DNA of 64,000 bases from a virus. Under the pieces are notes generated by a model. The model saw only the letters and a list, made by a program, of their open reading frames with translations. It was not told the DNA's origin and ran no database searches. The stretch is taken from IMG/VR virus record IMGVR_UViG_3300009104_000002, positions 64,001 through 128,000 of that record; one strand, written 5' to 3'. Below, piece by piece: positions 28,088 through 45,426 of this stretch. Position 1 is the first letter of the stretch, and every line of letters starts with the position of its first letter. A program made the position numbers and the translations under genes.

Positions 28088-28645
28088 TTACTTACCAGCG
28101 AAGATGGGGCCGCCTTCCTCTACGGTAGTAATTTCGGCCCAATCGTATCTAAATGTCATCGTAATTTCCGACAAATCCTCGGAAGTATAATCCAGTTCGC
28201 CATATCCAAGCTTGATTAAAAATGCATTTTTTAATGTCCATTGTTCTTGCGTTATCCCGTTGGCATCAACTTGCTTAATTATGACTTCAAAAGCTGATGA
28301 TTTTCTTATAGAAAACTTATTTTGAACGGCTCCTTCTGGGCCTAAATATCCCATCCTTGACAAGAGGGATGCTGTCGCACCTGCTGCATCCGGGCTGATT
28401 GGATCTGTCAAGACGAGAGAAACCTCATTCCACTCAACGGTACCGGGAAAGTAAAATTTGTGTTGCATGAAATTAACGTCTGCTGTATTGACGGTAATCT
28501 CTGGTTTATCAACTGTTTTTGCAAACCAAAGTGGAGCAATCGCTCCCAGCGGGGTATCCCCGACTTCGCCGCCAGCAAGTTGAACCGTAAATCTATATTT
28601 TCTTTTTGGGTCTACGCCCGCTGTTGTCCAAAAATCATTCGCCAT
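28088..28645 (-). CDS. tail tube protein (gp19-like)
   Basis: DPKRKYRF...AKTVDKP...FPGTVEWNEVSLVLTDP...QWTLKNAF...ITMTFRYDWA; directly follows the sheath gene. Confidence 0.88.
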   Translation of the reverse strand: MANDFWTTAGVDPKRKYRFTVQLAGGEVGDTPLGAIAPLWFAKTVDKPEITVNTADVNFMQHKFYFPGTVEWNEVSLVLTDPISPDAAGATASLLSRMGYLGPEGAVQNKFSIRKSSAFEVIIKQVDANGITQEQWTLKNAFLIKLGYGELDYTSEDLSEITMTFRYDWAEITTVEEGGPIFAGK

Positions 28646-28702: not shown

Positions 28703-31555
28703 TTAATCCTCAAATCCAGCGCCCTGATTTGTAATCACAAAGTCAAGTGCGATGTATTCAATTGCCTTCGCCGGCTTCAAATAAATTCTAGCATATACGA
28801 TATTCTGATCGACCAAATCCGGCGTGGTCGTTGTATTGTCCAGAACCAACTTATAATCACTCAATCCAAGTCTCGTCTTAACGCTTGAAAGGAACGGATT
28901 GGCGAGAGCCTTAAATCTCTCCCAAGTAACTTCGACGTTTTGATCAAAGAGAATTGTATTTGCAAAAATCGAAATCTGCTTTTTAACAAGAATTAGCATT
29001 CTCCTGACATTGATTCTATCCAAAGCACTTGGAGTAATCTGGAGAGTTTTTTGTCCGAAGATAACGATTCCCTCATTTGGAAATGAGGCGATTGGATTGA
29101 TGCTAGCATCGTAAAGCTTATCTCTCTCTTTCGATGTTAGTTTTTGACTAACATTCAAAACAGGAATTCCTGCGGAACCCTGCGATAGCCCACCCCTATT
29201 AAATCCTGCGGGAGCGAACCAAACTTCCGATTGTGCCTCGGATGAGGCGAGCGTTCCAAGAACCGCGACTGATGGGGGTACCCATAGGCGATTGTTGGAA
29301 GATACTGTATCTTGGATCTGAACCCAAGGATAATATGCACACGCATAAGAAGTATTAATTTGTCTGTTTTGAAGGTTAGAAACGACCGAAGAGACGCTCC
29401 CCAATCTAACAGCCGGGTCTGCATACACTGATGAATTTTCAGTAAATGGCAAATAAACATTCGGCAAGTCAACGACTGCCAAAGCATCTGCCCTCGTTTC
29501 ACAAGTCTGAATCATGTGATTTGTAATGGTATCGTTTGTTATTCCAGGAACTGCGATTAGATTACACGCCACTGCTTCTGGGTCCGAAACAATATCTATT
29601 GCCTCTTTTACCGTGTTCAGAGCATAACTCGTCTCTAGTGTTTTTCCTGACATTCCGGAATTTCTGAATGGCTCCACATCAAGGATATCAAGGCCGTCGA
29701 AGCCACCAGCCAGCGCTGTAGTGAATCTTACCCAATCATTATCAACAACGTCTCTCCAGCTTCCAGAGGCAGAGAGCGAGTCGCCATCTACGCGGGAACC
29801 AGAAAGATAATAAGAGTAGTTCTTGCCCAAAGGCTGTACAACCTCATCCAAACTAAACGCCCATTGAGGCGTAGTATTCGATGTTGCAACGCCGCCGAGA
29901 GGATAAACATAGTCCGCGTATCCCGCATCTGCCTTATCGCTACTATAAAAAGAACTATTTTCTAGGTAGGCCGAGACATTTAGGCCAAAATATGCATCAG
30001 TTTGGTCTGTCAAGCCGCCGGCAGAAGATGAAATCCTCAGTGTAGTCTCTGGAAATTTGAGTTTGACCTCATATAGATCCAAAGAACCTGTATTAATTTG
30101 ACTTCCTGCTTGTGGATTATCGTCTGGGCCGGCAGAACCCTGTTCTAAAACGGCCGCCGGGGTCATGGTTGTCTTATCGATGGTTACATCAGTGATTTTA
30201 GACGGGCCATAGACTCCAAATGGCAAGTATACGGGATTCGCGATGCCGTTCCGAACTGTATCGTCGACCTCTACTCTGATATACTTTGACGCATTTTCGT
30301 ATTCACCGTATTCTCGCATGACCACGGCTTCCTGATCCCACACTCGGTATTTATCTCCAATTTTCTTGGAAACATAATTTTCGGAGAGAGGATTTAAATC
30401 ACAGTTTGAAAATCTCTCAACACTCTCAACTGACGCATCGGTATCGCTCGCTTTCCTGACAACTACCGAAAATGTACCATATGGGTGAGTTCCGGTTGTA
30501 TCTCTGGAATATGTTAAATCCTGAATTGAGATTTTAAGACTGTCTTGAATCCACTTTCCTGGCTCAAGGGCGTGAATCTTAAAAAGTTTTTGCATACTAT
30601 CTGCGGAATATGATCCGGTCTCTGTACCAACGTCCTGAGAAAAATACCATCCAGTGGTCGCCTTTTTCGCGTCTTCACGATAAAAAGCTTTTGTATTATT
30701 ATCAAACGGAAGAATAAGTCCATAAGATGCTGTACTCAATTCTCCTGTTTCAAGTTTCTTCTGGATGAAGGATTCATAACTTTCCCCCAGCCAATAATAT
30801 TGTTCACCTCTTTTGAAATTTGTGGATGGCACTACTCCGCCCCTAATGGCCTGCGGATTCGTATTAAACACCTTTCTAATGAAGGTTCTAGAAGAAGGAT
30901 CAAAGTTAAATGTTGTCTGATATTTTACATCTCCGGAATCATCCTTGATGTATGCCAAATAATCTGGACCCGTTGAGGATCCGACATCCGAAGAGGTTCC
31001 GAGGAGGACTCCAATGCCGCTTTCGATAGATGAGTCGCCCGCGAGTGTACCGCTGAGACCGACTGCACCACCTGAATGGAAATACCAAATTGCACTAAGA
31101 TAACCAGTTTGAGGGGCTACCGATGCCGAAGGGTTACACAAAAATAGCCCGTAAGCGCCTCCATTGGATGCTGCCGATGTATCTAGGTCCACCGTTCCCC
31201 ACCCTGCTGCGCCGGCAGTTGTGGCATCTTCATTTTCCAATCCCGCAAGGCGAATCACCGTTACGGCGTCCACACTGTTTCTCAAGTATGCTTGTGCAGC
31301 ATAAGATGCATATGTTGGGCCTTGGCGATTACCATGGCGCCAAACATCTCCGGTAGCTTTACCGGGGACTGGGTTTCCAAATACCTGAACAAAATCAGAG
31401 AATGAATTAATCTTTACAGGCTCCATCGCGGGACCTTGGGGAAGGCGGCCAATGATTACTGGGCCTGCATCCCTATCAGCTTCTGGGAGCTGCGAGTTGT
31501 CAACTTCCCGCGTAAAAACGCCGGGAGACACAAATTTAAATTTTTTAACTGACAT
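28703..31555 (-). CDS. contractile tail sheath protein (gp18-like)
   Basis: FVSPGVFTREVD; C-terminus WFAPAGFNRG...INPIASFP...GQKTLQ...DRINVRR. Confidence 0.93.
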   Translation of the reverse strand: MSVKKFKFVSPGVFTREVDNSQLPEADRDAGPVIIGRLPQGPAMEPVKINSFSDFVQVFGNPVPGKATGDVWRHGNRQGPTYASYAAQAYLRNSVDAVTVIRLAGLENEDATTAGAAGWGTVDLDTSAASNGGAYGLFLCNPSASVAPQTGYLSAIWYFHSGGAVGLSGTLAGDSSIESGIGVLLGTSSDVGSSTGPDYLAYIKDDSGDVKYQTTFNFDPSSRTFIRKVFNTNPQAIRGGVVPSTNFKRGEQYYWLGESYESFIQKKLETGELSTASYGLILPFDNNTKAFYREDAKKATTGWYFSQDVGTETGSYSADSMQKLFKIHALEPGKWIQDSLKISIQDLTYSRDTTGTHPYGTFSVVVRKASDTDASVESVERFSNCDLNPLSENYVSKKIGDKYRVWDQEAVVMREYGEYENASKYIRVEVDDTVRNGIANPVYLPFGVYGPSKITDVTIDKTTMTPAAVLEQGSAGPDDNPQAGSQINTGSLDLYEVKLKFPETTLRISSSAGGLTDQTDAYFGLNVSAYLENSSFYSSDKADAGYADYVYPLGGVATSNTTPQWAFSLDEVVQPLGKNYSYYLSGSRVDGDSLSASGSWRDVVDNDWVRFTTALAGGFDGLDILDVEPFRNSGMSGKTLETSYALNTVKEAIDIVSDPEAVACNLIAVPGITNDTITNHMIQTCETRADALAVVDLPNVYLPFTENSSVYADPAVRLGSVSSVVSNLQNRQINTSYACAYYPWVQIQDTVSSNNRLWVPPSVAVLGTLASSEAQSEVWFAPAGFNRGGLSQGSAGIPVLNVSQKLTSKERDKLYDASINPIASFPNEGIVIFGQKTLQITPSALDRINVRRMLILVKKQISIFANTILFDQNVEVTWERFKALANPFLSSVKTRLGLSDYKLVLDNTTTTPDLVDQNIVYARIYLKPAKAIEYIALDFVITNQGAGFED

Positions 31556-31599: not shown

Positions 31600-31608
31600 A
31601 TAAATAGT
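31600..31608 (-). promoter_or_regulatory. putative late promoter motif ACTATTTAT
   Basis: Upstream of the sheath gene. Confidence 0.55.
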
Positions 31609-31668: not shown

Positions 31669-32049
31669 TTACTCTTGTTTTTTAACTTTTAAAAATTTAC
31701 CGCTCTTACCAGTGGCTTCTGGTAAAATAAATTCATATTCTACGCCTTCAAGCTCAGGAGGGATTCCCCTCTCTTCTCTAAGCTTTGCTATTTTTTCTTG
31801 AATATTATCTTCCAGCATCTCCAGCGTGGCAAATATTTCTTTTTCTCTTTTTTTTGTCTGGAAAAGGAAAGAGGCGAATTCCGATTCCGTTTTTGCAACA
31901 AGGCGAATGTTATTTAAAATATTTGCTGCCTCATCCCATGGTATTTCAATTTCGTCTGGTAACTCAGCCCCATCCTCAATGTGGGACTCTTTCACCTTTT
32001 CGGATTTTTTCTTAAATAACCCGGCTAGCCACTTCATATTTGAGTTCCT
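31669..32049 (-). CDS. hypothetical protein (about 122-126 aa)
   Basis: Probable start near MKWLAGLF, with SD GCGGAGG upstream; the track ORF extends into the upstream terminator; exact start uncertain. Confidence 0.55.
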   Translation of the reverse strand, partial: RNSNMKWLAGLFKKKSEKVKESHIEDGAELPDEIEIPWDEAANILNNIRLVAKTESEFASFLFQTKKREKEIFATLEMLEDNIQEKIAKLREERGIPPELEGVEYEFILPEATGKSGKFLKVKKQE

Positions 32050-32076
32050 CCGCTGTTTTATTCTAAATAGTAAGAA

Positions 32077-32102
32077 GCCCCCCCTTGTTGCCAAGGGAGG
32101 GC
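32077..32102 (-). terminator. intrinsic terminator
   Basis: GCCCUCCCUUG-GCAA-CAAGGGGGGGC, then UUCUU (GNRA tetraloop). Confidence 0.65.
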
Positions 32103-32138
32103 GAAAAATCTAAAAATAAATCAGATTTTTAATTTAGA

Positions 32139-34664
32139 CTATGCAGAAGTTTTCTTGACGTACTTAATAACAACGTAATCACCAAGTTCAGAAGCTTGCT
32201 TGAGTTCAATTTTATCATCAGTTACACCGAATTCCCAATCGAAAGTAGCTCCCATACGCTGCAGCATACCGTTAACGAATACCATTACGGACTCTTGGTG
32301 TGCCTGTGCAGAGATAGTGAATAATGTTTGAGCAGCAGTTGCATCAAACTCTTCGACAACGTGATCACCCTTTCTTACGAAAGCGGCGTTACCTGCCTTG
32401 AGGTCAATAACAGCTGTCTCGATAGCATCAATAGCCGAATCAAGCTCAACCATCGCGTCCTTCATGTTGACATCTGCGACATATCTCTCGGTACCAGCCC
32501 AAGTGATAAGTCCGGAAGCTCCAATACCCATGTTGTCCATAGACAACTTGAGAGCAGCATCCAGCTTGGAATCCGCGTCGTCAAGCGAAGTGGCGGCGCC
32601 AATGTAATTACGGGCACCAACAGCAACGTAAGCACCTGCAGCAGACAAGCCTGCTCCAGCCTGGGTTGCATCCAATTCGGACTGAATGCCAGCATCAGCA
32701 GCGATCCTAGCAAGTTCTTCAACTTTGAGGGCAGCGGAGAGCTTTTCATCAGCGTCATCTAGATCAGTAGCAGCACCGATATAGTGCCTACCACCTACTG
32801 CGAGGTAAGAGCCATTAGCCTGAAGACCTGCGCCGACCTGGGTTGCATCCAATTCAGCATGGTTTTCATTGATAGCCTCGATAAGTGTTGCAGCAGCAGT
32901 ATCCAATGCTGACGCTGGGCTCGCTTCAATGCGGGCTGCGACTTCATTAAGAGTATCTAAAGATGCATCAACACCTGCTCGGATATCTTCCTTGGCATTC
33001 AAAATCATATTTGAAATGCTCGCCTCAAGACTACTTTGACTTCCCTCATTGAGAGCCGCCAAAGAGCTAGAAAGCTCGCTCAAGGTGGCTGCCATTTCTG
33101 TGCCTCCACCAATCGCCAAAGTAAGGGCTTGATCGATTTTGTATTCAACAGATCCGGCAACATTATCATCCGAACTAATAAGGTCAATTTGGTCGATAAT
33201 GGATTCGAAAGCAGCCTGAGCAGTGCCACCAGCAATTGCATAGTGTGCTCTACTATCAGTGCTTGCCGCTGCGGTTCCGGTATATGCCTTAAAACCAACC
33301 ATACCAGCACCAGTTGCTTGAGCAGCTAATGCAGCGATATGATCATCGGTAGCTTTCTTTTCAGCATCAAGTCCGCCTACGACAGAATCCAAAGAAGCCT
33401 CGATAGTTCCAGCAGCAACAGAAAATAGGCCATTTGTGCTAGTGTGTCCAGCGTAGCCCACCATTCCGCCACCAGTATTTGGATTAGCGAGAGCAGCGAT
33501 GTGATCGTCGGTAGCTTTCTTTTCAGCGTCCAAGCCAGTCACCAAGGAATCAAGAGCTACATCAACCTGAGAAGCAGCAAGAGAGAAAAGAAGGTTTGCA
33601 CCCGCTTGACCATCATAACCAACCTTTGCAGCGCCCTTGGCAGCAGCTTGGGAAAGTATATCCGCTTCATACACGTCGAACTCCTCTCTGTCAGCGTCAA
33701 TAGCATCGACAACTGAATCGAGAGCAGCATCTACTTGAGAGGCAGCAAGGGAGAAATCTCCATTGGCACCCGATTTTCCATCATAACCGATTTTGGCAGC
33801 ACCCTTGGTAGCAGCCTGACTTTCCAAATCGAAGCGATCAAGATCAATCGCATCGACAATGGCGTCCAAAGATGCCTCAACGGTACCAGCAACAACACTA
33901 AATTTATTGTTACCTGCACTATTATCCTCTCCAGAATAACCGACTTTGGCAGAACCTTTGCCAGCGACCTGTGAAAGAACGTCTGATTCAAATACGTCGA
34001 ATTCTTCACGATCGGCGTCAATAGCAACGACGATATCGTCGATTGCTTGATCTAGACGCTTTGCGGAAATAGAGAAATCTCCATTTGCACCAGCTTGCCC
34101 AGAATAACCAACCAAGTAAGAACCTGATAGAGAACCAGATGAAGCCATTGCGGCCTCATGCGCGGCCATCTCGCTTGTGCGAGCGTCCACTTCTGCCTTT
34201 AAAGCAGCATCTAGCAAATGATCTGCGTTATCAAGTGAAGTAGCAGCGCCGATATAATTTCTAGCGCCAACTGCAACATACGCACCGAGAGCAGACAAGC
34301 CTGCACCGGCTTGAGTCTCATCAACTTCATCTTGAAGAGATGTCGTTCCAAGACCCTGATCATCCAACTCATTTGCAAGAGTTGTGAGAGCCGCTTTGAA
34401 AGAAGAAGCTCCTTGAATGAGTGGTGCCTCGGCAGCACTCCACGAAATTGTCGCGGAAAGGCTATCCGAAACGCCCAAAAGAGCAGCCAAACGAGTTGCA
34501 ACGAAACCACTGTGTGCGATTGCTTTACGATCAGAGATAGCATATTCGCTATCCATCTTAACAGAACCATCTGCCAAGATCAAGTGACCATCACTACCGG
34601 CAACGTCAGTGGCGTTGTTGAGCTGAGTTTGTGCTCTAATTTTTGTTTTTTTGACTACAGCCAT
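32139..34664 (-). CDS. repeat-rich structural protein (fibre/whisker-like, 841 aa)
   Basis: Three GARxYIGAATxLDxAD..L.AALK repeats and six VGY.G...F...LD..V.AID repeats; C-terminal VMVFVNGMLQR..DW domain. Confidence 0.6.
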   Translation of the reverse strand: MAVVKKTKIRAQTQLNNATDVAGSDGHLILADGSVKMDSEYAISDRKAIAHSGFVATRLAALLGVSDSLSATISWSAAEAPLIQGASSFKAALTTLANELDDQGLGTTSLQDEVDETQAGAGLSALGAYVAVGARNYIGAATSLDNADHLLDAALKAEVDARTSEMAAHEAAMASSGSLSGSYLVGYSGQAGANGDFSISAKRLDQAIDDIVVAIDADREEFDVFESDVLSQVAGKGSAKVGYSGEDNSAGNNKFSVVAGTVEASLDAIVDAIDLDRFDLESQAATKGAAKIGYDGKSGANGDFSLAASQVDAALDSVVDAIDADREEFDVYEADILSQAAAKGAAKVGYDGQAGANLLFSLAASQVDVALDSLVTGLDAEKKATDDHIAALANPNTGGGMVGYAGHTSTNGLFSVAAGTIEASLDSVVGGLDAEKKATDDHIAALAAQATGAGMVGFKAYTGTAAASTDSRAHYAIAGGTAQAAFESIIDQIDLISSDDNVAGSVEYKIDQALTLAIGGGTEMAATLSELSSSLAALNEGSQSSLEASISNMILNAKEDIRAGVDASLDTLNEVAARIEASPASALDTAAATLIEAINENHAELDATQVGAGLQANGSYLAVGGRHYIGAATDLDDADEKLSAALKVEELARIAADAGIQSELDATQAGAGLSAAGAYVAVGARNYIGAATSLDDADSKLDAALKLSMDNMGIGASGLITWAGTERYVADVNMKDAMVELDSAIDAIETAVIDLKAGNAAFVRKGDHVVEEFDATAAQTLFTISAQAHQESVMVFVNGMLQRMGATFDWEFGVTDDKIELKQASELGDYVVIKYVKKTSA

Positions 34665-34815: not shown

Positions 34816-34848
34816 AAAAATCCCGTAATATATATTACAGGATTTTTT
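34816..34848 (-). terminator. intrinsic terminator downstream of prkA
   Basis: AAAAATCC-T-GTAAT-atat-ATTAC-G-GGATTTTT on the minus strand. Confidence 0.6.
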
Positions 34849-34881
34849 TTAAAAAAAGGTTTTTATTTTTTTTTTATACTA

Positions 34882-36822
34882 TTAACTATCTCTCCAGAGG
34901 TTGTTCGAGGCATATTTTATAATTTCATTTGCAGATTTCTCATTATAACCATAGTCCTCTATTAGTGTCTTTACCATTTCATTATATTTAGTTTGCTGCT
35001 TCTTATCTCTGGATTTAGATTTAGTAACAATTCTGGATATATCCCTAACAGATGTTAGCAGCTTATTTTCAATGGCCTCCTTCAATGGGCCATAGGAATT
35101 CCAATCAATTTTCTCCCCTTTTCGAAGTTTTGCGAACATATAGGCGGTGATATCTGCTCTAAAATTCTCCCTTGCCGAACCAACGATACCAATTTGTTCT
35201 TCAATTGATTTTAGGAATTCCTCGTCGGCTTCCATTTCTTCCTTGGTTACGCTATCTTTCACCTTTGAGCCATTAACATAGGCCTCGGCGTGATCGAGAT
35301 AATTATCAAACAGAGATTCTGCCTGTTCTTGATATGCTGAAACAAATGCTTTTGTAATTTCTTTCTCAAGAATTTTCAAATATTCGTCATGAAGTTCCTT
35401 CTGAAGAAAAGATAAATATTTTTCCCGAAGATCATCAACAACAATTTGCTCCTTTACCTGCTTTATGAGAGCATCTCTAATAGAAATCGGAGTAACCATA
35501 TTATCATCAGAATCTGCCAGAGCGGCGTCAATAGCCTTCATAATAAACCTCGTTGAAATTCCAGTCATCCCCTCATCTCTCACTTCATCGCGCAAGTCTT
35601 CAATATCAATCTTCTTAATATAGCCCTTTTCCACCACCTCGTCTCCGTTATAAATTTTCATCTTAGTCATCGGGTCGACTTTGTTTGATAATTTAATTCT
35701 AGATAAAACTGCGAACATTGCAGCAACTTCCAGGGTGTGAGGGGCAATGTGAGAATCAAAATCAGATTCATCTAGCATCTTTTTATAAATTTTTTGCTCT
35801 TCGCCAACTTCCAAACAATATGGAACATTTACACGAACAATCCTATCTAAAATGGCCTCGTTCGTATTTTCCGATTTAAATTTAACCCACTCTGCCTCGT
35901 TACAGTGGGCCAAAATGACACCATCAAAATAGATCATTGCACCCTTACCTGGGCTTGGGATGGCTTTTTCCTGAGTTGCAGTAATCATTGTATGCAAAAA
36001 TTCAATTTCATTTTTGAATACCTCGACAAACTCTACTATTCCGCGATTTCCTACGTTAAAAGCCCCGTTAAGGCTTAAAGCACGAGGGTCGTCCTCTGGA
36101 TATAGGTCTAATTTTGAAATGTCTTCTGACCCTATTAGGATGCTTGTATCCTGCGTGTTTGCATCCATAGGGGGGACAACTCCAATTCCTCGCCTGCCCC
36201 TTATGGAGAAGGATGTTTCAATTACTGGGAAATTCATATAATCCCCCTGATATTCCTCCAGGAGACGATGCCTACAGACTGGACACAAATCTCCCTCTAT
36301 TTTTATTTCATATATTTCCCTAAATTTAGACCTCAGGCTTCTAGGTATTAAATGAATTGGATCTTCCTGTATCGGGCAGCCCCTTAGAGTATATAAGGGT
36401 CCGGATTTTTCAAGAGCGCGCTTTATGTGCTCCACCAAGGCAGATTTGCCTGCGCCGACTGGGCCCAGCAACAAGAGGACTTGTCGACTTTCTTCTCCCT
36501 TCATAGAGGCAGAATGAAGATATCTCATTATTTTTGCCAATGATCTCTCCATTCCAAAAAAATTACTTTGAAAATAATCATAAGTTTTTACTCTTTCCCC
36601 ATTAAATAAATTGTTGCATCTATTATTATCTTCCGACATCTTTGTAATGCCTTGGGAAACTATTGTCTGATAGAGCCTCTTATGGGCCAAAATAGCCAAC
36701 CCCTTATTTTCCTCAAGAATCTCCAAATATTGTGCAAAAGTTCCTGAAAACTTCTTTCTCTTACTATCTTTTTTGTGTTTTTCGGCAATTTCTAAAAAAC
36801 TGCTAGTTTTTGAGTCTGTCAT
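34882..36822 (-). CDS. prkA: PrkA/YeaG family AAA+ ATPase / serine protein kinase
   Basis: FFGMERSL...LLLLGPVGAGKS (Walker A)...GCPIQEDP...NRGIVEFVEVFK...HCNEAEW...EAILDRI...GMTGISTRF...YGYNEKSA..Y. Confidence 0.95.
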   Translation of the reverse strand: MTDSKTSSFLEIAEKHKKDSKRKKFSGTFAQYLEILEENKGLAILAHKRLYQTIVSQGITKMSEDNNRCNNLFNGERVKTYDYFQSNFFGMERSLAKIMRYLHSASMKGEESRQVLLLLGPVGAGKSALVEHIKRALEKSGPLYTLRGCPIQEDPIHLIPRSLRSKFREIYEIKIEGDLCPVCRHRLLEEYQGDYMNFPVIETSFSIRGRRGIGVVPPMDANTQDTSILIGSEDISKLDLYPEDDPRALSLNGAFNVGNRGIVEFVEVFKNEIEFLHTMITATQEKAIPSPGKGAMIYFDGVILAHCNEAEWVKFKSENTNEAILDRIVRVNVPYCLEVGEEQKIYKKMLDESDFDSHIAPHTLEVAAMFAVLSRIKLSNKVDPMTKMKIYNGDEVVEKGYIKKIDIEDLRDEVRDEGMTGISTRFIMKAIDAALADSDDNMVTPISIRDALIKQVKEQIVVDDLREKYLSFLQKELHDEYLKILEKEITKAFVSAYQEQAESLFDNYLDHAEAYVNGSKVKDSVTKEEMEADEEFLKSIEEQIGIVGSARENFRADITAYMFAKLRKGEKIDWNSYGPLKEAIENKLLTSVRDISRIVTKSKSRDKKQQTKYNEMVKTLIEDYGYNEKSANEIIKYASNNLWRDS

Positions 36823-36823
36823 C

Positions 36824-38101
36824 TTAAAATTCCCATGGTTCTCCCTCTATAACAGAGGTAAATGTAACTTGATCGTGCCACAAATAACAAATATAGTTGT
36901 AAACTTTGTCGGCATAGGAAAGATCTAAATCTCTACCATCGTGCTCGTGTTTAATATAAATAGTATTACTTCTCCTATCATAATCAGAGACATAAACAAC
37001 TGGTATGCTATTTAATCCTACTCCTCTAATTAGGGCGTTTTGAACGCTTTTCCACCCTTCTTTATCAGATATTTCATTAATAACATAATTTCCTCTTGAT
37101 TGTCCGTAAGAATAACTAAAAAGATTTAATTCCCTGCATAAATCCTCATCTAAGTATTTTCTGATAAAAGATTCGTCATTATGTATTTCCCTGGCAAACT
37201 TACATTCTTCAAATCCATGCTCTTTTTCTATTTTTTTAAATATTGTATATCCAAGATGATACGGATTTATTCTTCCGACAATAGGCCTCACAACTTGATT
37301 GTGTGTCTTTAAAAATGCTAAATGATATTTGTCTGGAAGGTTTAGATCTTTCATTATCTTTTCATGAATTGTAACTGCCCAGCCTTCATTCATAATCTTT
37401 GTTTGAGCTTGGGGAATAAAATATAGAGATCTCTTTTCCACCATTTCTATTATGTCTTGCTCCCAATCTTTTAGATCTCTTGCGTTTTCTTTTATAAAAT
37501 TTAATAAATTATAATCTCTCATCTCTTCCATCATAAGGTCGTCATTTTCAAGATCTTTTTCTTTTTTCTTTTTTCTAGAAATTCCCGGTGTTCGCGGGAT
37601 TTGATATTTTATTGCATGACAGGCATCCAAGACTTTCTCCACCCTCTCAATACCAATGTTTGGATCCTCGATATAGGCTTGAACTCTTTTCGCCGCACTT
37701 TTAAATCGTGATATAATATTATCCGGATCCGTTTTTTCGAACATCCTATTGTTTTTAAAAAAATCAGAATGGCCCACGCAGTGAGACATTGTCAAAAGAT
37801 GCGTACTTATTGGATTTTCAAGCATCAAGTAGGCAATTGAGGGATTTGAATTGATAATCATCTCATATGGCAAGCCCTCCATTCCCAGATTATATCTTGT
37901 AATTGTCCTCTCAAATGATTTACCAAAAGACCAATGCCGATAATGAGTTGGCAAGCCAGTATATGCCATTGCGCCAATCATTTCATGATAATTGAGAATT
38001 TCGTATTCAATAGGGAACCAATCGAGTCCATATTTTTCTTTAGCGATTTTACAAATCTCTTTGTCCCACTTTTGTAATTCTTTTATTGACCAATCCTTCA
38101 T
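36824..38101 (-). CDS. spoVR: SpoVR/YcgB family protein
   Basis: GLPTHYRHWSFGK...YEMIINSNP..AYLM...HCVGHSDFFKNN...QTKIMNEGWA...NPYHLG. Confidence 0.95.
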   Translation of the reverse strand: MKDWSIKELQKWDKEICKIAKEKYGLDWFPIEYEILNYHEMIGAMAYTGLPTHYRHWSFGKSFERTITRYNLGMEGLPYEMIINSNPSIAYLMLENPISTHLLTMSHCVGHSDFFKNNRMFEKTDPDNIISRFKSAAKRVQAYIEDPNIGIERVEKVLDACHAIKYQIPRTPGISRKKKKEKDLENDDLMMEEMRDYNLLNFIKENARDLKDWEQDIIEMVEKRSLYFIPQAQTKIMNEGWAVTIHEKIMKDLNLPDKYHLAFLKTHNQVVRPIVGRINPYHLGYTIFKKIEKEHGFEECKFAREIHNDESFIRKYLDEDLCRELNLFSYSYGQSRGNYVINEISDKEGWKSVQNALIRGVGLNSIPVVYVSDYDRRSNTIYIKHEHDGRDLDLSYADKVYNYICYLWHDQVTFTSVIEGEPWEF

Positions 38102-39303
38102 GGCTTTCCACCAAATAGCTTTCTAAACGATGGCCAAATATGGGTTGGCTTGGAGATTTTTACTTTTTTAAATTTTGAATCTATGATTGGATCAAGTTTT
38201 AACCATAGATTGGATGCCTCGCTAGCATTATAGCTAAATGCTTTACTGAGTATTCCCAATTCAGATTCTGGATCCGAGTTAGGATCAATTTCTGCATAAC
38301 ATATCATTTGATTTATCTCTTTCAATTCACTGAAAAGGTTTATAGCCTTTGTATTATCAAAGGACCAATTCTCCCCGTCTCCAGAATAAAAAGTATAGAT
38401 GTTCCAATTAGATGGGTGATATCTTTTTGAAATAATATCCTTTTCGAGTTGTAATGCCGTCGACATAACTGTTCCTCCCGATGTTGCTTTTTTGAAAAAG
38501 TCGTCCTCCGTTACTTCTTTGGCTTCCGTAGAGTGCGAAATGAAAATAACATCAACATTTGAATATTTATAATTTAAAAATTGATAGAGTAAAAAATAAA
38601 AACTTCTTGCCATGTATTTCTTCTCCTTATCCATAGATCCAGAAACATCCATTAGAAAAAACACAACTGCAGAATTATTCTCTTGTGGCTTGTTTTTCAT
38701 ATGTTTATATTTAATATCATCTTCGTGAAAAGGAAACCTCTCGTCGGAATTTTCGTCATATGAGCCGACTGAAATGGCCATCTTTTTTCTTCTTATTTTT
38801 CTTTTTATTGTTTCTTTTTTGGAAAGTCTTGATCTCATCCCCTTCTTGCGAAAGCCAGACCTTTTCAATTTATGAGTTTTAATAAAACGAAATTTCTTCT
38901 TTTCTAAATCTGGAAGTTCTAAGTCTTGAAACAGATATTCGGCCAACTCATCAAGAGTTACCTCAACTTCATAATATTCTTCTCCCTTTTCATCTGAGCC
39001 CTTTGATCCCTGTGACTTTTGCTTTTTTCCGCCTTTTCGAAGAATTTGTCCTCTTTTTATTTTTTTGTCTCCTGCTGAGCCAGCTTTTTTATTTTCTTTA
39101 TTTTCTCCATATACAAACTGATATTCTTTTATTCCCTTGACTGGGATCTTTACTTTCTTTTTTCCGTCTTGTCCGATTATTGACTCATCGGCAACGACGT
39201 CTTTTATTCCCTCTCTCAAGGCTTTATCAATTTTTTGCTTATGCCTTTTTCTATCTGCGGCAGATCTATCAGCTATTGATTTATGTTCTCTAAAGATACT
39301 CAT
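38098..39303 (-). CDS. yhbH: YeaH/YhbH (DUF444) family protein with vWA domain
   Basis: Start MSIFREH (ATG 39303); RHKQKI...ESII...VKIPVKGIKEYQFVYG; FLMDVSGSM; FISHSTEA; SGGTVMS; YSGDGEN (MIDAS). Confidence 0.93.
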   Translation of the reverse strand: MSIFREHKSIADRSAADRKRHKQKIDKALREGIKDVVADESIIGQDGKKKVKIPVKGIKEYQFVYGENKENKKAGSAGDKKIKRGQILRKGGKKQKSQGSKGSDEKGEEYYEVEVTLDELAEYLFQDLELPDLEKKKFRFIKTHKLKRSGFRKKGMRSRLSKKETIKRKIRRKKMAISVGSYDENSDERFPFHEDDIKYKHMKNKPQENNSAVVFFLMDVSGSMDKEKKYMARSFYFLLYQFLNYKYSNVDVIFISHSTEAKEVTEDDFFKKATSGGTVMSTALQLEKDIISKRYHPSNWNIYTFYSGDGENWSFDNTKAINLFSELKEINQMICYAEIDPNSDPESELGILSKAFSYNASEASNLWLKLDPIIDSKFKKVKISKPTHIWPSFRKLFGGKP

Positions 39304-39310
39304 TATATAT

Positions 39311-39318
39311 ATAATTAG
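39311..39318 (-). promoter_or_regulatory. putative late promoter motif CTAATTAT
   Basis: Between the terminator and the yhbH ATG. Confidence 0.5.
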
Positions 39319-39322
39319 AAGT

Positions 39323-39351
39323 AAAAAAGGGTTTCCGACTGGAAACCCTTT
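39323..39351 (-). terminator. intrinsic terminator after the LamG gene
   Basis: AAAGGGTTTCC-agtc-GGAAACCCTTTTTT. Confidence 0.75.
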
Positions 39352-39375
39352 GTTATTTTTCAATATTAATTTCTA

Positions 39376-42300
39376 CTAAATTAGAGTTGATAAATCATTC
39401 CCGCTATTTCCAGCATTATAGATGGCCAGAACTTCGGTGGCTGTTAGCTCGCGGGTCCAGGTAGCAATATCGTCCATTTCTCCGTTAAATCTTAAACTTT
39501 GGCCGGCTGGCATGGGAGGGCTGTGGGCATATTGTCCGAAACGGACGGGATTAGTCGGTGCTGTCATGCCCGGATATGGTCCAAGGTTGTCATCGGCGTT
39601 GTCTACCTGCACCCCATTTATGTAGATCTTAATGCTATTCGATGAGGTTCCACCACCATAGGTAAAGCACGCGTGATACCACACACCATCGGATGGGGCC
39701 GGTGCTGTCCTCGCGATGCGGCGGGCGCCGTTAAGGTTATAACAAGCAGATCCGATGACGCCTGACTGTATGTAACTCTTCCATTCGCGGGTGTTATCAA
39801 CGCCGTCTTTTGATATAAGCTCCTGAACACCATACGGCGCCGAAGATGCCCAACCTGGCGTATTTTTAAACCATCCCGAGATAGTAAAGCCGGCAGTGAA
39901 AGAGACAGAGGACATGCCCACATCTATATAGTTGCCGGCCGTTGCAGAAGACATACCGGCTGAATTACCAAACTTGCCACCCTGATAAGTTACTGTACCA
40001 TATTCGGTGCCGTTGTAGGTCCCCAAGGAATCATTGGCGTTGCCATTGAGGGGCCAATATCCCGCGAGGCCAGTAGCCAGAGGAAATGTTGTTAAATAAA
40101 GATCTGCAACCTCACTGTCATTAAGTACTCTTGACCAAATTCTGACATCATCCATTTGTCCGTCAAAATTCTCGGTACCGTGGTATTGGGCTCCAATTCT
40201 GACTGTTTGGCCAGAGTTGATTGCACCTGTATTTCCGTGCGATACAGTCGATACAAGTTGTCCGTTTTTATAAAATTTAGTAGTAGTTCCAGAATTGGAT
40301 ACTGTCCACAGCGCCCATTCACCTACAGTCGGCCTGTAAGTGGCTGATGATGCAATTGTGGTGCTGCCACCCATACCTAAATCAACTCTATTAGCTGACG
40401 AGTTATATCCAAAGAAGAATCTACCTCCAGAACTACCCCAACTCATATACCTTCGAGATCCAGAAAGTGAATCATGCTTAACCCACATAGACATTGTAAA
40501 GGTAGCATTGGAAGCGGTGAAAGGATCATTCGACAGTGTGATTTTAGAATTAGATCCACTGAAGTCTGCGTAAGTTCTTCCACCTGCGGTGGCAAAGGTG
40601 ACGTTTGAAGCAGTTCCGTTATCTGATCCCGCAGAGTCGTTTGCATTGCCAGAATCAAAGTTCCAAGCTCCAATCAAATCGTCCGTAAGAGAAATTCCAT
40701 CCTCTCTCCCTGCGGAGTGAAGTGATGATGCTTCCGAGGCTGAAAGTCCTCGATTCCATTGTCTCACATCGTCCATGGCGCCATTATAAAAGGTGCTTGA
40801 AAGGCCATTTCTATATCCCAAAAATATATCATTTGATGTACTTGATACATTTTGAGATCCTGGGTCTCCGTACGTTGATGAATTATCAACACCATCAATA
40901 TAGAGCCTCACATCGCTGCCGTTTCTGGTAAGAACAAGGTGCTGCCATTGACCCACCACAATCGGTGTATTTCCGTTGCAATTATGACCGGCGCCTCCGA
41001 AATAAGAACTTACTTGGCCCTGATAAATAAACAATTCCAAGTTAGTGTAGTGCTTACTCCAAAGCATGCCAGAATAATTTACTCCCGGTGACACTACATC
41101 TGGATTTATCCACATAGAAATTGCAAAATCCCCTGTTCCAAATGAGTTGCTAGCATCGTGGGGAATTTGAATATAATCATTTGATCCGTCAAAATTGACT
41201 TCTTTCTTGGTTCCGGCTAGAGAGAACGTTGCTCCCGAAATTGTTCCATCATTCGACCCAACAGAGTCTTTTGCATCAAAGTCAAGAGCGTATTTTGCGA
41301 CCAGTCCGTCTGTTATTGACTGGGCGTCTTCAGCGCCAGCAGAATAAAGGGTTGAAATTTCTGAAGCAGAGAGTACCCTGTTCCAGATGCGAACATCATC
41401 AATCCCGCCATCATGATTAAAATTAGGGTCGCCTCCGCCGTAGCCGAGATATATATCTTGTGCAGAAGAAAACGTTCCCGTAAACCCCCCGTTATAAGAA
41501 GCGTTCCAGGTATCGGCGACACCGTTCAAATAAACTTTCTTTTCATTGGTGTCTGGGTCGAGGGTAATAATAAAGTGATTCCATCCTGCGGGGACTGCTG
41601 TGTTACCCCTGTTGTCTATCCATCCACCGCCCGTATTGTGCTGCGTTCTTATCTTCCCATCTAAAACAAAGAGGTTAAAGTATGAGCCAGGGGAAGTACC
41701 CCATTGAAACATATATGCATAGGTGTGCCCAGAATAAGTATAAGTGGTATCTATCTTCGCCCAAAATGAGACGGATGATTTTCCGGTTAAATCAACTGTG
41801 GCTGATGACTGTAGATATCCTATTTTTGTGAAATCCGCGTACTTATCAGAGCCATTAGTTGCATGACCGACTGTTCCGTTGGTGGTAAGATTATTCGACC
41901 CAACAGAGTCAGCTGCATCAAAGTCAAGGGCGTATTTTGCGACCAGTCCGTCTGTTATTAGCTGTGTGGTTGAGTGAAGAGTGCTTACTTCTGATGCGCT
42001 GAGGGCGCGAGACCAAACTCTAACGTCGTCAACATAATCAGCAAAGGCCTGATTATGAGTCGTGGCATTTGAAGCGCCGATAGCGGCCAAAGTTTGTGAT
42101 GATTTCCATGGAATCGATCCAACGCTGGCGCCGTCAACATAATAAGTTGTAGTTGCGCCGGATCCGACTGCCGTTATCATATGCCAGCCAGTATAGTCAG
42201 CCGGATTCATATCAAATCCACAATCATGGAAGCCCGGACCGGACTGATAGCCGCCAAGATTATTGGAGTTCCATTCGATAATTACCGGATGATCATTGGG

Positions 42301-44529
42301 GGCTTTCATAGCAGTTCTCCAATATGACCCTCCCGGCTTTAATCCCTTAAACCACATCGAGAATGTCCAATCTCCAGCTAAACTAGGATTGCTTGACGGC
42401 ACAAGTGCAATAGAACTAACGCTCGGATACGACCAGGCTGTTCGCGAGTCTACTGTTGCAAGAGATGCGCCAGTAAGCGTTACATTCGCCGATCCGACAT
42501 CTGCGGTTGTATCTTCGCAATTATGTTGCAGAATTAAGCCAACAGTAAGTCCGACACCATATGTCGTAGAGCCTTTTACAACAATATTTCCAGATCCATC
42601 GATGAGGCCATAATATAGTGTGTAAACACCATCAGCAACGCCAGTCATTTGCGCTGTTGTTCCAGATGGAACTGCAGTTCCTCCGTGTGCAGCACCTACC
42701 GCACCGAGGGGTGATGTCGAATAAGCCCAGCCGCCCGCTGCATTACTTCCGGGATCTCCGATTGTAGCGGTAATATCAACGGTATCTCCAGTAACGACAA
42801 CTGATGCATCGATAGTAGAATCCGCAGTTATAATGTGGCGGCCAGTGCCAGAATTCCACATCCATTCAATTTCTGCTTGACTCAGGGATTTTGTCCAATA
42901 TGCGACCTCATCCATTTTAACCCCGACAGCTTCATTGAACCAACCTCCATATGAGCCGTGATTGGATTGTACTCCTCCCAGGCGCATGTTGTTGACAGTG
43001 AAATTAACTGCATTTACAGCATTTGTTATTTCTGTTGCCTTTACTCCGTCTACCCAAGTTTGCATTGTTGATCCATTTTGAACGGCAACAATATGATGCC
43101 ACGCTCCGGTTGATAGTCCAGGAATCGCACATTGATATGGCGTTACATTAGAGTTATTGTATCTATAATAAAATCCAGTTGCATTTGTGGTACTTCCGAA
43201 ATTAACGGCGATCCCGCCTGGGCCCCAGGTCTGGTAATAAATTCCGTTATCCATCAAGCCGCATGTCAACTCTGAGTCACTATATACCCACAAAGAAATT
43301 GAATATGTTCTCGTACTGGTAATCATTGGGTGACCAAGATCGACTAGTCTATTGTCGGCGCCGACGAAAGCCTTTTGGTTCCACTTGTCGACATCATATG
43401 TGGCGGTGCCAACTGCCATTGTGGCACTGTTTCCATTGCCAGAAGCGTCAAGAAGGTCTCCGTTGAAGTGATAATATCTATTTAGATCAGACAAAATTAT
43501 GGCCGAAATATCCCGGAGGTCAGACTGAATTGTAGCAGAAGGGCCCACAACATCTCCATTTGCGTCGACGGGTGCAACATAAATTGTATGTAAAGCAGAG
43601 GAGAGCCCAGTGATTATAACACTCGTTCCTGTCTGAAATGTTCCTCCGTGTGGCTGACCAGTGGCGCCAAGAGGGGTGCCGACGCGATAGGCCCAACCTG
43701 CGGCTGAACTTCCCGGATCTGTTAAAGTGACGCCCAATGTAGTGTCTGTTCCGTCATTTGATTCTGTTAATGCAACGGTAGCTACTTGTTCGTAAGAGTT
43801 CATAACTGTTTGTACCTCTGACTGAGCCAGGGCCTTATTATGAAGATGGAAATCGGAGATTTTTCCCTTGAAAGAAACGGTGCCGGAATAAGCAGGGTTG
43901 TGTCCCACGGCAAACGCAACACCATTCGCCATAACAGCAGAGATAGATGATGGTGTAGCTCCATTTTCAAAGTTACTTGCTGCAAGATTTCCGTCGATAT
44001 AAATTTCAATATCGGTACCGGTATATACCATAGAGATGTGGTGCCACGCGCCATAACCAGGATTTGGAGAGCCAGTGCCTAATGGGATACCACCTGCCGA
44101 CAAGGTAAATCCGTTAGATGCCGTATACAAAGCATATAGGCCAGGATTTAGGCGATATTGGGCGCCCCAATGCTGACGAGTATCCAAAATAAGCATGTTT
44201 GTGTTTCTATAGGGAGACTTTCCCCACAAGCACTGAAATTCATTGAGACTTAAATTTTGTCCTGTATCTGCCTTGAACCAAAAGCTTACAGTCATTTTAC
44301 CCGTTGATGCAATTTGTGCACCGAGTGTGGACTCGAAATTATCGATTGTCAAATATTTGCCACCAGTACAGTCAAGGACGCGGCGGCCGGAAGAGGTCTC
44401 GACCTCCGGAGAGGCGCCACCAACATAGGTGATGCCCGTATCTTCGCTAGAATCAAACTTTATTCTCTTTAATAATTCGCCCTCATCGGTGGCGGTGGCG
44501 GCAAAAAAGCCCATTGGTGCTACAAACAT
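39376..44529 (-). CDS. large adhesin/fibre with seven LamG (concanavalin A-like) domains and two Ig-like domains
   Basis: Repeated ...T(F/I)S.W...W.H...T......YVDG...IGA....F.G.MDDVRIW.R.LS..E pattern occurs seven times. Confidence 0.88.
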   Translation of the reverse strand: MFVAPMGFFAATATDEGELLKRIKFDSSEDTGITYVGGASPEVETSSGRRVLDCTGGKYLTIDNFESTLGAQIASTGKMTVSFWFKADTGQNLSLNEFQCLWGKSPYRNTNMLILDTRQHWGAQYRLNPGLYALYTASNGFTLSAGGIPLGTGSPNPGYGAWHHISMVYTGTDIEIYIDGNLAASNFENGATPSSISAVMANGVAFAVGHNPAYSGTVSFKGKISDFHLHNKALAQSEVQTVMNSYEQVATVALTESNDGTDTTLGVTLTDPGSSAAGWAYRVGTPLGATGQPHGGTFQTGTSVIITGLSSALHTIYVAPVDANGDVVGPSATIQSDLRDISAIILSDLNRYYHFNGDLLDASGNGNSATMAVGTATYDVDKWNQKAFVGADNRLVDLGHPMITSTRTYSISLWVYSDSELTCGLMDNGIYYQTWGPGGIAVNFGSTTNATGFYYRYNNSNVTPYQCAIPGLSTGAWHHIVAVQNGSTMQTWVDGVKATEITNAVNAVNFTVNNMRLGGVQSNHGSYGGWFNEAVGVKMDEVAYWTKSLSQAEIEWMWNSGTGRHIITADSTIDASVVVTGDTVDITATIGDPGSNAAGGWAYSTSPLGAVGAAHGGTAVPSGTTAQMTGVADGVYTLYYGLIDGSGNIVVKGSTTYGVGLTVGLILQHNCEDTTADVGSANVTLTGASLATVDSRTAWSYPSVSSIALVPSSNPSLAGDWTFSMWFKGLKPGGSYWRTAMKAPNDHPVIIEWNSNNLGGYQSGPGFHDCGFDMNPADYTGWHMITAVGSGATTTYYVDGASVGSIPWKSSQTLAAIGASNATTHNQAFADYVDDVRVWSRALSASEVSTLHSTTQLITDGLVAKYALDFDAADSVGSNNLTTNGTVGHATNGSDKYADFTKIGYLQSSATVDLTGKSSVSFWAKIDTTYTYSGHTYAYMFQWGTSPGSYFNLFVLDGKIRTQHNTGGGWIDNRGNTAVPAGWNHFIITLDPDTNEKKVYLNGVADTWNASYNGGFTGTFSSAQDIYLGYGGGDPNFNHDGGIDDVRIWNRVLSASEISTLYSAGAEDAQSITDGLVAKYALDFDAKDSVGSNDGTISGATFSLAGTKKEVNFDGSNDYIQIPHDASNSFGTGDFAISMWINPDVVSPGVNYSGMLWSKHYTNLELFIYQGQVSSYFGGAGHNCNGNTPIVVGQWQHLVLTRNGSDVRLYIDGVDNSSTYGDPGSQNVSSTSNDIFLGYRNGLSSTFYNGAMDDVRQWNRGLSASEASSLHSAGREDGISLTDDLIGAWNFDSGNANDSAGSDNGTASNVTFATAGGRTYADFSGSNSKITLSNDPFTASNATFTMSMWVKHDSLSGSRRYMSWGSSGGRFFFGYNSSANRVDLGMGGSTTIASSATYRPTVGEWALWTVSNSGTTTKFYKNGQLVSTVSHGNTGAINSGQTVRIGAQYHGTENFDGQMDDVRIWSRVLNDSEVADLYLTTFPLATGLAGYWPLNGNANDSLGTYNGTEYGTVTYQGGKFGNSAGMSSATAGNYIDVGMSSVSFTAGFTISGWFKNTPGWASSAPYGVQELISKDGVDNTREWKSYIQSGVIGSACYNLNGARRIARTAPAPSDGVWYHACFTYGGGTSSNSIKIYINGVQVDNADDNLGPYPGMTAPTNPVRFGQYAHSPPMPAGQSLRFNGEMDDIATWTRELTATEVLAIYNAGNSGNDLSTLI
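41251..41959. repeat. 67-bp near-identical direct repeat (41251-41317 and 41893-41959)
   Basis: 63 of 67 bases identical; encodes ITDGLVAKYALDFDA(A/K)DSVGSN at the starts of LamG domains 4 and 5. Confidence 0.9.
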
Positions 44530-44571
44530 TAATCTATGTCTCCTTTTGTTTATGATTTGAAATCTGTTTTT

Positions 44572-45426
44572 TTAGCTGAAATTCAAACTAGCAGCGATAT
44601 AATATTTTACTCCGTCATAAAAAATGGATAACATATCTTCTGCGGTGGCGGCTGTAGACAGAGTAATGGCTGTCCCTCCGGCTTTTTTGAAATCTGCCCC
44701 CAAGGTGAGTGTTCTTCCGCCGGTTGAGTCCTGCTTAATTTTAAGCATATATGTTCCCGGTGCAACATTAGTAACAGAGTTGAGTGTTAAATTTCCCGTT
44801 GCAACGAGTGAGGCGCAGTTGCCCAATTGTGCATCCCACGAAATGGCCCCGGAGACATTTCCCAAACTTTGGTGTTTTGTCATACCCAGAACATTGTCCG
44901 ACAAAGAAACCTCAATAGAATTACCAGAACCAGCTTGGGCAATAGCCATCTCACCCCCAGACTTAGCTGAAATTCTTTTAAAAGTCATCGCTCCGGATGC
45001 AACGGATCCCAGTACGGATTCACCTTCTGACGTGCCTCCCAGGCTAGTAATATTAGTAATTGCCTCTGAAGTGTCACCTGTCACAATTCCCGATGAAGAT
45101 TGAGCTTTTACCAAGGTAGAGGATGCTGCCGTAGAAGTCAGGGATACCCTATCATATGTCGTGACATTTAATGTGCCCTTGATTTTTAATTCGGTACCGC
45201 CTACGACGGTATCCAAATCTGATTGCGGGCCAACATATCCAATAACCTCCCAGAGACCATCGGAAATTTTTCTTCCGTAAACTTTCACCATGACACGGCT
45301 CAAGATAGCCAATTCGCTCTCTCCAGACGCATCAATGTTCGCAGCATAATTTTCGAGCGTGTGATCCACACTGCCGTCAACCTGCGCTATTAAACTGTTG
45401 GGTCCTAACCCTAAAACTTGTGCCAT
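44572..45426 (-). CDS. fibre-associated adaptor protein
   Basis: C-terminus GTYMLKIKQDSTGGRTLTL...ITLSTAATAEDMLSIFYDG, a domain that commonly precedes lectin genes in phages. Confidence 0.55.
   Translation of the reverse strand: MAQVLGLGPNSLIAQVDGSVDHTLENYAANIDASGESELAILSRVMVKVYGRKISDGLWEVIGYVGPQSDLDTVVGGTELKIKGTLNVTTYDRVSLTSTAASSTLVKAQSSSGIVTGDTSEAITNITSLGGTSEGESVLGSVASGAMTFKRISAKSGGEMAIAQAGSGNSIEVSLSDNVLGMTKHQSLGNVSGAISWDAQLGNCASLVATGNLTLNSVTNVAPGTYMLKIKQDSTGGRTLTLGADFKKAGGTAITLSTAATAEDMLSIFYDGVKYYIAASLNFS

Follow-up and report, generated by a model that had tools for sequence, protein, structure and literature searches.

The window analysed here is a stretch of 64,000 nucleotides (nt), comprising bases 64,001–128,000 of the IMG/VR virus record IMGVR_UViG_3300009104_000002 (190,479 bp, rated complete by CheckV), and it belongs to an uncultured marine T4-like phage of 190 kb. 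Our analyses have identified in this window a trio of full-length, adjacent and co-oriented open reading frames (ORFs), viz. yeaH (DUF444), spoVR and prkA. The presence of this trio is best explained by a cassette of cellular origin that, judging from its phylogeny and composition, large T4-like phages of one marine clade have long retained. By analogy with its cellular counterparts, the most likely role of the three proteins would be the late, ATP-driven turnover of host proteins. The identity of the trio alone is close to certain, and for the identity and the turnover role taken together we estimate a probability of about one half.

All three genes are located on the minus strand. The gene yeaH (also known as yhbH; 38098..39303, 401 amino acids (aa)) matches PF04285 (3.3e-107) and the spore_yhbH model TIGR02877 (1e-113; 380 bits, under the cut-off of 468), and its product has an N-terminal region that is basic and of low complexity, after which comes a vWA domain whose MIDAS residues (DVSGS...GGT...GDG), read directly, are intact. 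The start of yeaH is placed at the ATG at 39303, because the alignment to the family model begins at residue 2 of the resulting protein and because the alternative TTG start at 39363, taken from a mechanical ORF list and rejected, gives an extension that would contain the upstream terminator described below. The gene spoVR (ycgB; 36824..38101, 425 aa) matches PF04293 (5.6e-117), and residues H107, H111, F114, F115 and N238–A242 of its product, which make up the HxxxH..DFF and NEGWA blocks, are invariant in an alignment of 34 sequences; the C-terminal domain PF24755 scores 22.4 bits, under its cut-off of 27.6. The gene prkA (yeaG; 34882..36822, 646 aa) matches PF08298 (3e-145; N-terminal AAA+ domain, model positions 2–358 of 358) and PF06798 (6.2e-81; PrkA C-terminal domain, model positions 1–255 of 255), and residues 23–640 of PrkA match PDB entry 9xip (1e-97), for which a literature search found no paper. 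Its Walker A motif GPVGAGKS (residues 120–127, with K126) is invariant in the PrkA alignment. Against the NCBIfam equivalog NF011999 (YeaG type), a model built on the proteobacterial type, PrkA scores 411.7 bits, under the cut-off of 576, and its sequence places it in a Bacillota-like subtype, not in the proteobacterial type. The first-pass annotation of this DNA had described a complete, motif-intact trio coupled by an ATGA overlap of the yeaH stop and the spoVR start (38098–38101) and by a 1-bp gap between spoVR and prkA (position 36823), and this description is borne out by the end-to-end Pfam matches and by direct reading of the Walker A, MIDAS and SpoVR blocks and of both junctions. The PADLOC defence-system models gave no assignment for the trio, the only matches being marginal ones to P-loops (e.g. 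DolB, 6e-05 over 90 residues), with none to SpoVR.

The order of the three genes distinguishes the phage cassette from its cellular counterparts. A pattern scan of IMG/VR recovered at least 137 viral contigs with close PrkA relatives, and among the best 80 that were kept (61–100% PrkA identity) the order yeaH-spoVR-prkA is found in all 78 of the loci that hold more than one gene of the trio. None of the 91 cellular loci has this order; all of them (76/76 from Bacillota and 15/15 from a second phylum, that of a metagenome-assembled genome (MAG) labelled as Bdellovibrionota) have the order prkA-yeaH-spoVR, and the permutation relative to cells that had been noted at first is thus upheld. When the 4.6-kb trio region was compared by megablast with 50,697 phage records, no match was obtained; a cultured near relative is not among these records, from which near-identical ones may have been left out. 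The nearest cellular PrkA homologues among 185,579 species genomes are from Bacillota (Clostridia and Negativicutes), with 59–62% identity, and a homologue with 53–60% identity is present in 113 of the 124 genomes of the second phylum, whereas none of 200 evenly drawn Pseudomonadota has a PrkA of the window's subtype. The cellular sampling relied on two exact peptide patterns, which retrieved mostly Bacillota, and this was partly corrected by the second phylum and the 200 Pseudomonadota only. A search at the level of 50%-identity representatives gave three full-length representatives with at least 51% identity and otherwise none above 41%, which does not resolve a donor.

Maximum likelihood trees (quick IQ-TREE searches, with support from the Shimodaira–Hasegawa-like approximate likelihood-ratio test (SH-aLRT)) recover a phage-only monophyletic clade for all three proteins, with support of 96 for PrkA (100 when the second phylum is included), 99 for SpoVR and 96 for YeaH, the root resting on very long outgroup branches and the cellular side of the subtype being represented by two phyla. 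In the PrkA tree, Bacillota and the second phylum each form a monophyletic group, with support of 99 and 93, respectively. The same subclades (A, B, C, D and A+B+C) are recovered in the PrkA, SpoVR and YeaH trees, and the three genes have therefore travelled together; a phage-only clade with congruent topology had been proposed as a test of ancient co-option, and such a clade was found. In four contigs from MAGs labelled as bacterial, the genes are in the phage order and their sequences fall within the phage clade; one of these contigs shares its flanks with a 293-kb jumbo phage and is on that account interpreted as mis-binned phage sequence. One Bdellovibrionota-labelled MAG has two trios, one in the cellular order (L184) and one in the phage order within the phage clade (L094). 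The latter is flanked by genes for an Fpg glycosylase, UvdE, a PAS histidine kinase and a D12 methylase, and its contig may be either a mis-binned jumbo phage or an integrated element.

The amino acid sequences of the trio are under strong constraint. In comparisons of the window with six relatives, synonymous sites are saturated (proportion of synonymous differences, pS, of ~0.8), and nonsynonymous divergence (dN) was therefore compared alone. The dN values are 0.09–0.12 for PrkA, 0.14–0.18 for SpoVR and 0.12–0.22 for YeaH, and those of the capsid and sheath proteins are 0.10–0.20 and 0.22–0.50, respectively; PrkA has a lower dN than the capsid protein in all of the pairs compared. The AT-richness of the trio, which had been read as a sign of long residence, is confirmed in itself (33.7–38.4% guanine plus cytosine (GC), against 39.7% for the genome), and what it indicates is that the trio lies within the distribution of the phage genome's own genes, at the 12th–48th percentile for GC and for GC at third codon positions (GC3). 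Taken together, the monophyletic phage clade, the genome-matched composition and the strong amino acid constraint argue for the long residence in phages that had been suggested.

Within the window, the trio is located on the minus strand between the capsid and neck genes and the tail sheath gene, and the wider distribution of this arrangement indicates that the trio is an addition to it. The closest group of relatives (82–100% PrkA identity) keeps the capsid-neck-trio-sheath synteny, and in most members of this group yeaH abuts the preceding neck-region gene with zero gap and a Laminin_G gene is found after prkA, not before yeaH. In the groups with 61–77% PrkA identity, the flanks of the trio are unrelated to those in the window: in a 194-kb contig it is flanked by HNH, amidase, thioesterase and DUF2201 genes, at locus L029 it is surrounded by HNH, amidase and thioesterase genes, and at loci L068 and L085, of the lineage to which a 293-kb contig with terminal repeats belongs, it lies among helicase, HD, NUDIX, RNaseH-like, tubulin and PhoH genes. 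The capsid proteins of these genomes are 56–76% identical to that of the window, and in the two sister lineages that were checked for position (L029 and L033) the trio is ~85–110 kb from the capsid gene. In the reverse test, relatives were fetched by their capsid protein; at least 598 contigs matched, 43 loci included 5 kb or more of sequence on the downstream side of the capsid gene, and in 41 of these 43 the capsid-neck-sheath-tube block is present without the trio. A complete relative of 185 kb lacks prkA from its whole genome. The trio is therefore an accessory cassette and does not itself belong to the structural module; the place that it takes up in the window's subclade, between the neck genes and the sheath gene, is a slot of variable content. 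The synteny survey called for earlier has thus shown a constant order yeaH-spoVR-prkA in the 78 multi-gene IMG/VR loci and a neck-sheath position in the window's subclade.

Several further observations concern these loci. At the slot itself (window positions 31669–34664 and 39376–45426, compared with loci L005–L027 and L190–L269), the sheath gene of most relatives directly follows the neck genes. The cargo of the slot in the window's subclade consists of the trio and of differing genes (here those for a 1717-aa Laminin_G_3 protein, an 841-aa protein and a 141-aa protein), and the side of the trio on which the Laminin_G gene is found varies among genomes. In the 293-kb jumbo lineage (L068, 14783–15955; L085, 11869–13080), the trio is a few genes away from a gene of the tubulin/FtsZ family (PhuZ-like) and from a PIN-PhoH gene, and the 293-kb jumbo record also has two tandem capsid paralogues (G337, 176–180 kb).

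The trio is delimited by signals of its own on the minus strand. An intrinsic-terminator-like hairpin (39326..39351; 11-bp stem, 4-nt loop and T run) ends the upstream gene for the 1717-aa Laminin_G_3 protein and sets the trio apart, and a second hairpin (34816..34847; 14 pairs, AT-rich, with a T run) lies 35 nt past the prkA stop, so that the terminators reported for both sides of the trio are present, at 39351–39326 and 34847–34816. Between the first hairpin and yeaH is CTAATTAT (39311..39318, minus strand), a variant of a recurrent promoter-like box (A)CTA[AT]TTAT, which ends 7 nt before the yeaH ATG. Since yeaH has no Shine-Dalgarno sequence and the box is so close to its start, the yeaH message may lack a leader or carry only a very short one; in relatives yeaH instead abuts the preceding gene. 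The first-pass annotation had regarded this motif as shared with capsid and tail genes. Taken alone, CTAATTAT is not over-represented in the window (5 matches against 3.6 expected, with at least 5 in 32 of 100 shuffles). However, a k-mer scan of 98 upstream regions of the whole genome shows ACTATTTA/CTATTTAT and CTAATTAT to be enriched 31- to 38-fold. Of the 42 genome-wide copies of the CTA[AT]TTAT family, 35 are on the coding strand, and in 22 cases a gene start follows within 60 nt. The genes with such a box upstream include those for the sheath, a 284-aa protein, two capsid-adjacent proteins and a 501-aa protein as well as yeaH; examples of (A)CTA[AT]TTAT(A) in the window are found at 31600, 39311, 45468, 51903, 52403 and 59802. 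From this distribution, CTA[AT]TTAT is plausibly a phage promoter box, and one that is not confined to structural genes.

The role that we consider most likely for PrkA, YeaH and SpoVR is drawn by analogy with published work on the cellular proteins. In Escherichia coli, YeaG (renamed SpdA) is needed for a starvation-induced, largely non-specific degradation of cytoplasmic proteins that yields amino acids and ATP (PMC13684143), and the genes yeaG, yeaH and ycgB show mutual cofitness in six bacteria, with amino acid use as the common theme (bioRxiv 10.1101/072470). The PrkA of Bacillus subtilis degrades casein slowly, in an ATP- and Walker-A-dependent manner, and shows no kinase activity (PMC9512850), and that of B. 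anthracis is a YME1-like clade-III AAA+ protein without peptidase residues (PMC13001217). On the basis of this biochemistry, PrkA can reasonably be read as an unfoldase without a peptidase. In the mechanism proposed here, PrkA would be a clade-III (FtsH/YME1-like) AAA+ ring ATPase, YeaH would serve as its vWA/MIDAS adaptor, by analogy with other AAA+/vWA pairs, and SpoVR would be a zincin-like partner that supplies or regulates the peptidase step. The cassette would probably be transcribed together with the virion genes or shortly after them, and its three products would turn over the cytoplasmic proteins of the host at the expense of ATP and in a broadly non-specific manner, as a phage counterpart of the YeaG(SpdA)-dependent starvation-induced protein degradation (SPD), by which amino acids and energy would be freed for virion synthesis in nutrient-poor hosts. 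Late expression of the trio is plausible because yeaH abuts neck genes in close relatives, and the promoter-like box is common to the trio, the sheath and other genes.

The part assigned to SpoVR in this mechanism rests on a structural lead. A model of SpoVR built with AlphaFold 2 from the 34-sequence alignment (pLDDT 81.7, pTM 0.82) was compared by VIA-align, and zincin peptidases occupy most of the top 50 rows, with Z-scores of 8–11.3 over 160–200 residues of the model region from 1 to ~327, although helical models can reach such values by chance. The zincin families among these top rows are DUF885, M1, M3, M4, M30, M32, M61, ACE and DPP III. The invariant NEGWA block of SpoVR appears to resemble the motif of the M1 family that holds the third zinc ligand. 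SpoVR may thus be a zincin-like partner, perhaps a peptidase or a pseudopeptidase, a suggestion offered as a lead and not as a result, and for which our literature search found no paper proposing SpoVR as a zincin-like peptidase or pseudopeptidase partner. The fold match suggests a split, FtsH-like machine composed of an unfoldase and a peptidase. In its strongest form, the proposal would be that SpoVR is the missing peptidase or metal-dependent partner of PrkA, that the trio is a split, FtsH-like three-part protease, and that a whole clade of ocean jumbo phages carries its own copy with which to degrade the infected cell's proteome and so supply amino acids and ATP for virion production; this is tentative, and we consider it more probably wrong than right.

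A number of observations weigh against the turnover role and the structural lead. The Z-scores of the SpoVR fold are in a range that mostly helical models can reach by chance, a Foldseek search of the SpoVR model against the PDB gave nothing significant (all E >= 0.08), and a SpoVR profile search against PDB sequences was likewise negative. An hhalign comparison of SpoVR with E. coli PepN had a probability of <1%, and its alignment, which covers the GAMEN region, was given no weight. SpoVR has the sequence H107-C-V-G-H111, which retains the histidine spacing of HExxH and has no catalytic glutamate, and the protein could, on this evidence, be a pseudopeptidase. PrkA's own activity is disputed, the B. 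anthracis protein alone having negligible protease and kinase activity in vitro (PMC13001217) and the B. subtilis protein being very slow (PMC9512850). The SPD of E. coli takes hours and may be slow in comparison with a lytic cycle, and the trio is dispensable for related phages (it is absent from this site at 41 of 43 loci, and prkA is missing from the complete 185-kb relative).

The principal alternative is that the trio acts in signalling or takeover, with PrkA as a Ser/Thr kinase or regulatory ATPase and YeaH and SpoVR as co-factors, so that the starvation or dormancy response of the host is reprogrammed or blocked without bulk proteolysis and a nutrient-limited cell would remain productive. 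The oligotrophic marine setting, with close homologues in TARA assemblies, fits such a function, and Price et al. proposed a three-protein signalling pathway tied to amino acid and nitrogen use (bioRxiv 10.1101/072470). According to the summary given in PMC9512850, YeaG has been reported to autophosphorylate and to phosphorylate AceA. The kinase reading, which had also been entertained in the first-pass annotation, is nevertheless contested in the literature. The YeaG reports favour it, whereas no kinase activity was found for PrkA of B. subtilis or B. anthracis (PMC9512850, PMC13001217) and the kinase P-loop is degenerate. This alternative is weakened because these negative assays concern PrkA of the Bacillota type, the one closest to the phage protein (59–64% identity). 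In addition, the 2026 data from E. coli link YeaG directly to protein loss (PMC13684143), and a place beside late genes would be odd for a takeover function. We therefore regard signalling or takeover as an unlikely primary role, if the most serious competitor to host-protein turnover.

It is less probable still that the cassette serves in virion assembly or maturation, with the AAA+/vWA pair and the zincin-like protein serving as a chaperone or maturation protease for the proteins of the capsid, neck or tail. Pairs of AAA+ and vWA proteins are known remodellers, the trio of the window's subclade is tightly packed between the neck genes and the sheath gene, and the trio of the Thermus phage Lalka8 lies between portal/minor head genes and TerL. 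However, the location inside the structural module, which had originally been taken as a pointer to a virion function, loses this meaning, since the same capsid-to-sheath block occurs in 43 relatives and is without the trio in 41 of them, the complete 185-kb relative has no prkA, and the trio is ~85–110 kb from the capsid gene in L029 and L033. It is this accessory distribution, together with the non-structural neighbours of the trio in the sister lineages (L068, L085 and L029), that weakens the assembly alternative. The same three proteins, moreover, cooperate in non-infected bacteria (bioRxiv 10.1101/072470).

The usual interpretation of spoVR as a 'sporulation auxiliary metabolic gene (AMG)', in which a spore-forming host is pushed into or out of sporulation, draws on the gene names and Bacillus phenotypes, on the reading given in a virome study (PMC8940887) and on the presence of Clostridia and Negativicutes among the nearest cellular PrkA homologues. 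It is highly improbable for this cassette and a poor fit to both its phylogeny and its marine pelagic sources, because the phage clade is separate from Bacillota and the relatives come from metagenomes of the marine water column, where such a framing is unfit for pelagic phages; the module is also common in non-sporulators (113/124 genomes of the Bdellovibrionota-labelled phylum, and E. coli). Lastly, host DNA mis-assembled into the phage contig, or a recent and unselected passenger from the host, for which nothing was found in the window (an unrelated Enterobacter phage, LAU1, of 30 kb with YeaG at its very end, may be such a case), is excluded in practice: the trio is genuine phage DNA, because independent IMG/VR contigs from different samples repeat the same junctions and neighbourhood and because its GC and GC3 fit those of the genome's own genes, and its members fall outside the cellular clades (<=64% identical to any cellular PrkA found) with low dN at saturated synonymous sites.

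In the genome at large, a rough gene call over the whole record places 195 of 200 genes on the minus strand. In transcription order, the major capsid gene (49115–50842, minus strand; PHROG major head protein, 1.5e-71) is followed by a gene for a 422-aa neck/adaptor-like protein, three small genes and the gene for the 284-aa protein. The gene for the 1717-aa protein with seven Laminin_G_3 repeats (39376–44529) directly precedes the trio, which is followed by the genes for the 841-aa and 141-aa proteins, both without a family match, and then by the tail sheath (28703–31555) and tail tube (28088–28645) genes. Two adjacent genes on the minus strand (45510–46355 and 46369–46872) encode proteins of 281 and 167 aa whose first 30 residues are near-identical (MADNKWTKPSNPPPPLF...); the pair resembles a tandem duplication of a neck-region gene that is present as a single copy in relatives.

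The PrkA/YeaH/SpoVR trio is among the most widespread bacterial modules without an agreed mechanism, and the link between YeaG and bulk starvation proteolysis dates only from October 2026 (PMC13684143). A complete phage copy that is constrained and evolves separately suggests an autonomous module that is beneficial when nutrient-limited cells are infected, and the self-contained phage trio offers a compact system for reconstituting the mechanism. If the proteolysis reading is true, protein recycling would join the nucleotide, photosynthesis and phosphate genes as a resource managed by ocean phages, and a split protease would be the protein-level counterpart of the phage-driven degradation of host DNA. 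As a discovery the trio is modest, since its occurrence in phages is already on record. It had been put forward as a candidate for an undescribed system, a description that does not hold: the trio is annotated in the Thermus phage phiYS40 (2006), in the Lalka phages and in the Ralstonia phage RsoM2USA, whose annotation tables list PrkA and SpoVR (PMC8504454). In marine viromes, spoVR is known as the most abundant 'sporulation AMG' of an oxygen-minimum-zone virome (PMC8940887), and the genes of the trio have their own PHROG families, labelled 'unknown function'. What is new here is the phage-specific gene order in comparison with 91 cellular loci, the congruence of the three genes, the recognition of the structural position as the insertion of one subclade, and the lead on the SpoVR fold.

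Of the known systems, the cellular prkA(yeaG/spdA)-yhbH(yeaH)-spoVR(ycgB) module of the Bacillota type, known from Clostridia and Negativicutes and also present in the phylum of the Bdellovibrionota-labelled MAG, is the most similar to the cassette, having the same three full-length Pfam families with the Walker A, MIDAS and SpoVR invariants in three adjacent and co-oriented genes; its identity to the window is 53–62% for PrkA, 38–51% for YeaH and 37–46% for SpoVR. The window differs from it in the cyclically permuted order yeaH-spoVR-prkA, in the separate phage-only clade found in three trees and in scores that are under the NCBIfam equivalog cut-offs. The cassette is also carried by a phage of lytic type, where a promoter-like box of the phage precedes it, whereas the cellular module is under sigma-S, NtrC or sigma-E control.

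Other phages carry comparable genes. The Thermus phages phiYS40, TMA and phiLo and the phages Lalka8, Lalka27a, Lalka27b and LalkaMN1 have the order vWA(DUF444)-SpoVR-(X)-PrkA, like the window, and in Lalka8 the trio adjoins head and packaging genes. These trios are ~23–35% identical to that of the window and fall far from the marine clade, at the ends of very long branches, and they are probably a separate acquisition. The phage phiYS40 has an additional 616-aa gene between spoVR and prkA that is absent from the window; this hypothetical gene of the Thermus myophages (L001, 4001–5851; phiYS40 gene 058) is also lacking in the smaller Lalka phages. The Ralstonia jumbo phage RsoM2USA and the megaphages LR756502 and LR756511 are likewise large phages with PrkA, YeaH and SpoVR (where the locus was reached), but their genes are in the cellular order prkA-yeaH-spoVR and of proteobacterial-type sequence, ~30–33% identical to the window; the PrkA tree places RsoM2USA and LR756502 with E. 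coli YeaG, and the long-branched LR756511 with the Thermus phages. As these other phage trios are far outside the marine clade, phages have acquired the module several times.

The remaining comparison is with FtsH/YME1, in which an AAA+ domain is fused to an M41 zincin peptidase. The proposed system differs from it in that SpoVR has no M41 sequence homology and has HCVGH in place of HExxH, that PrkA and SpoVR are separate polypeptides and that a vWA adaptor is added. With PrkA reported as a YME1-like clade-III AAA+ protein (PMC13001217) and the SpoVR model matching zincin catalytic domains, PrkA and SpoVR would nonetheless represent a split version of the same logic.

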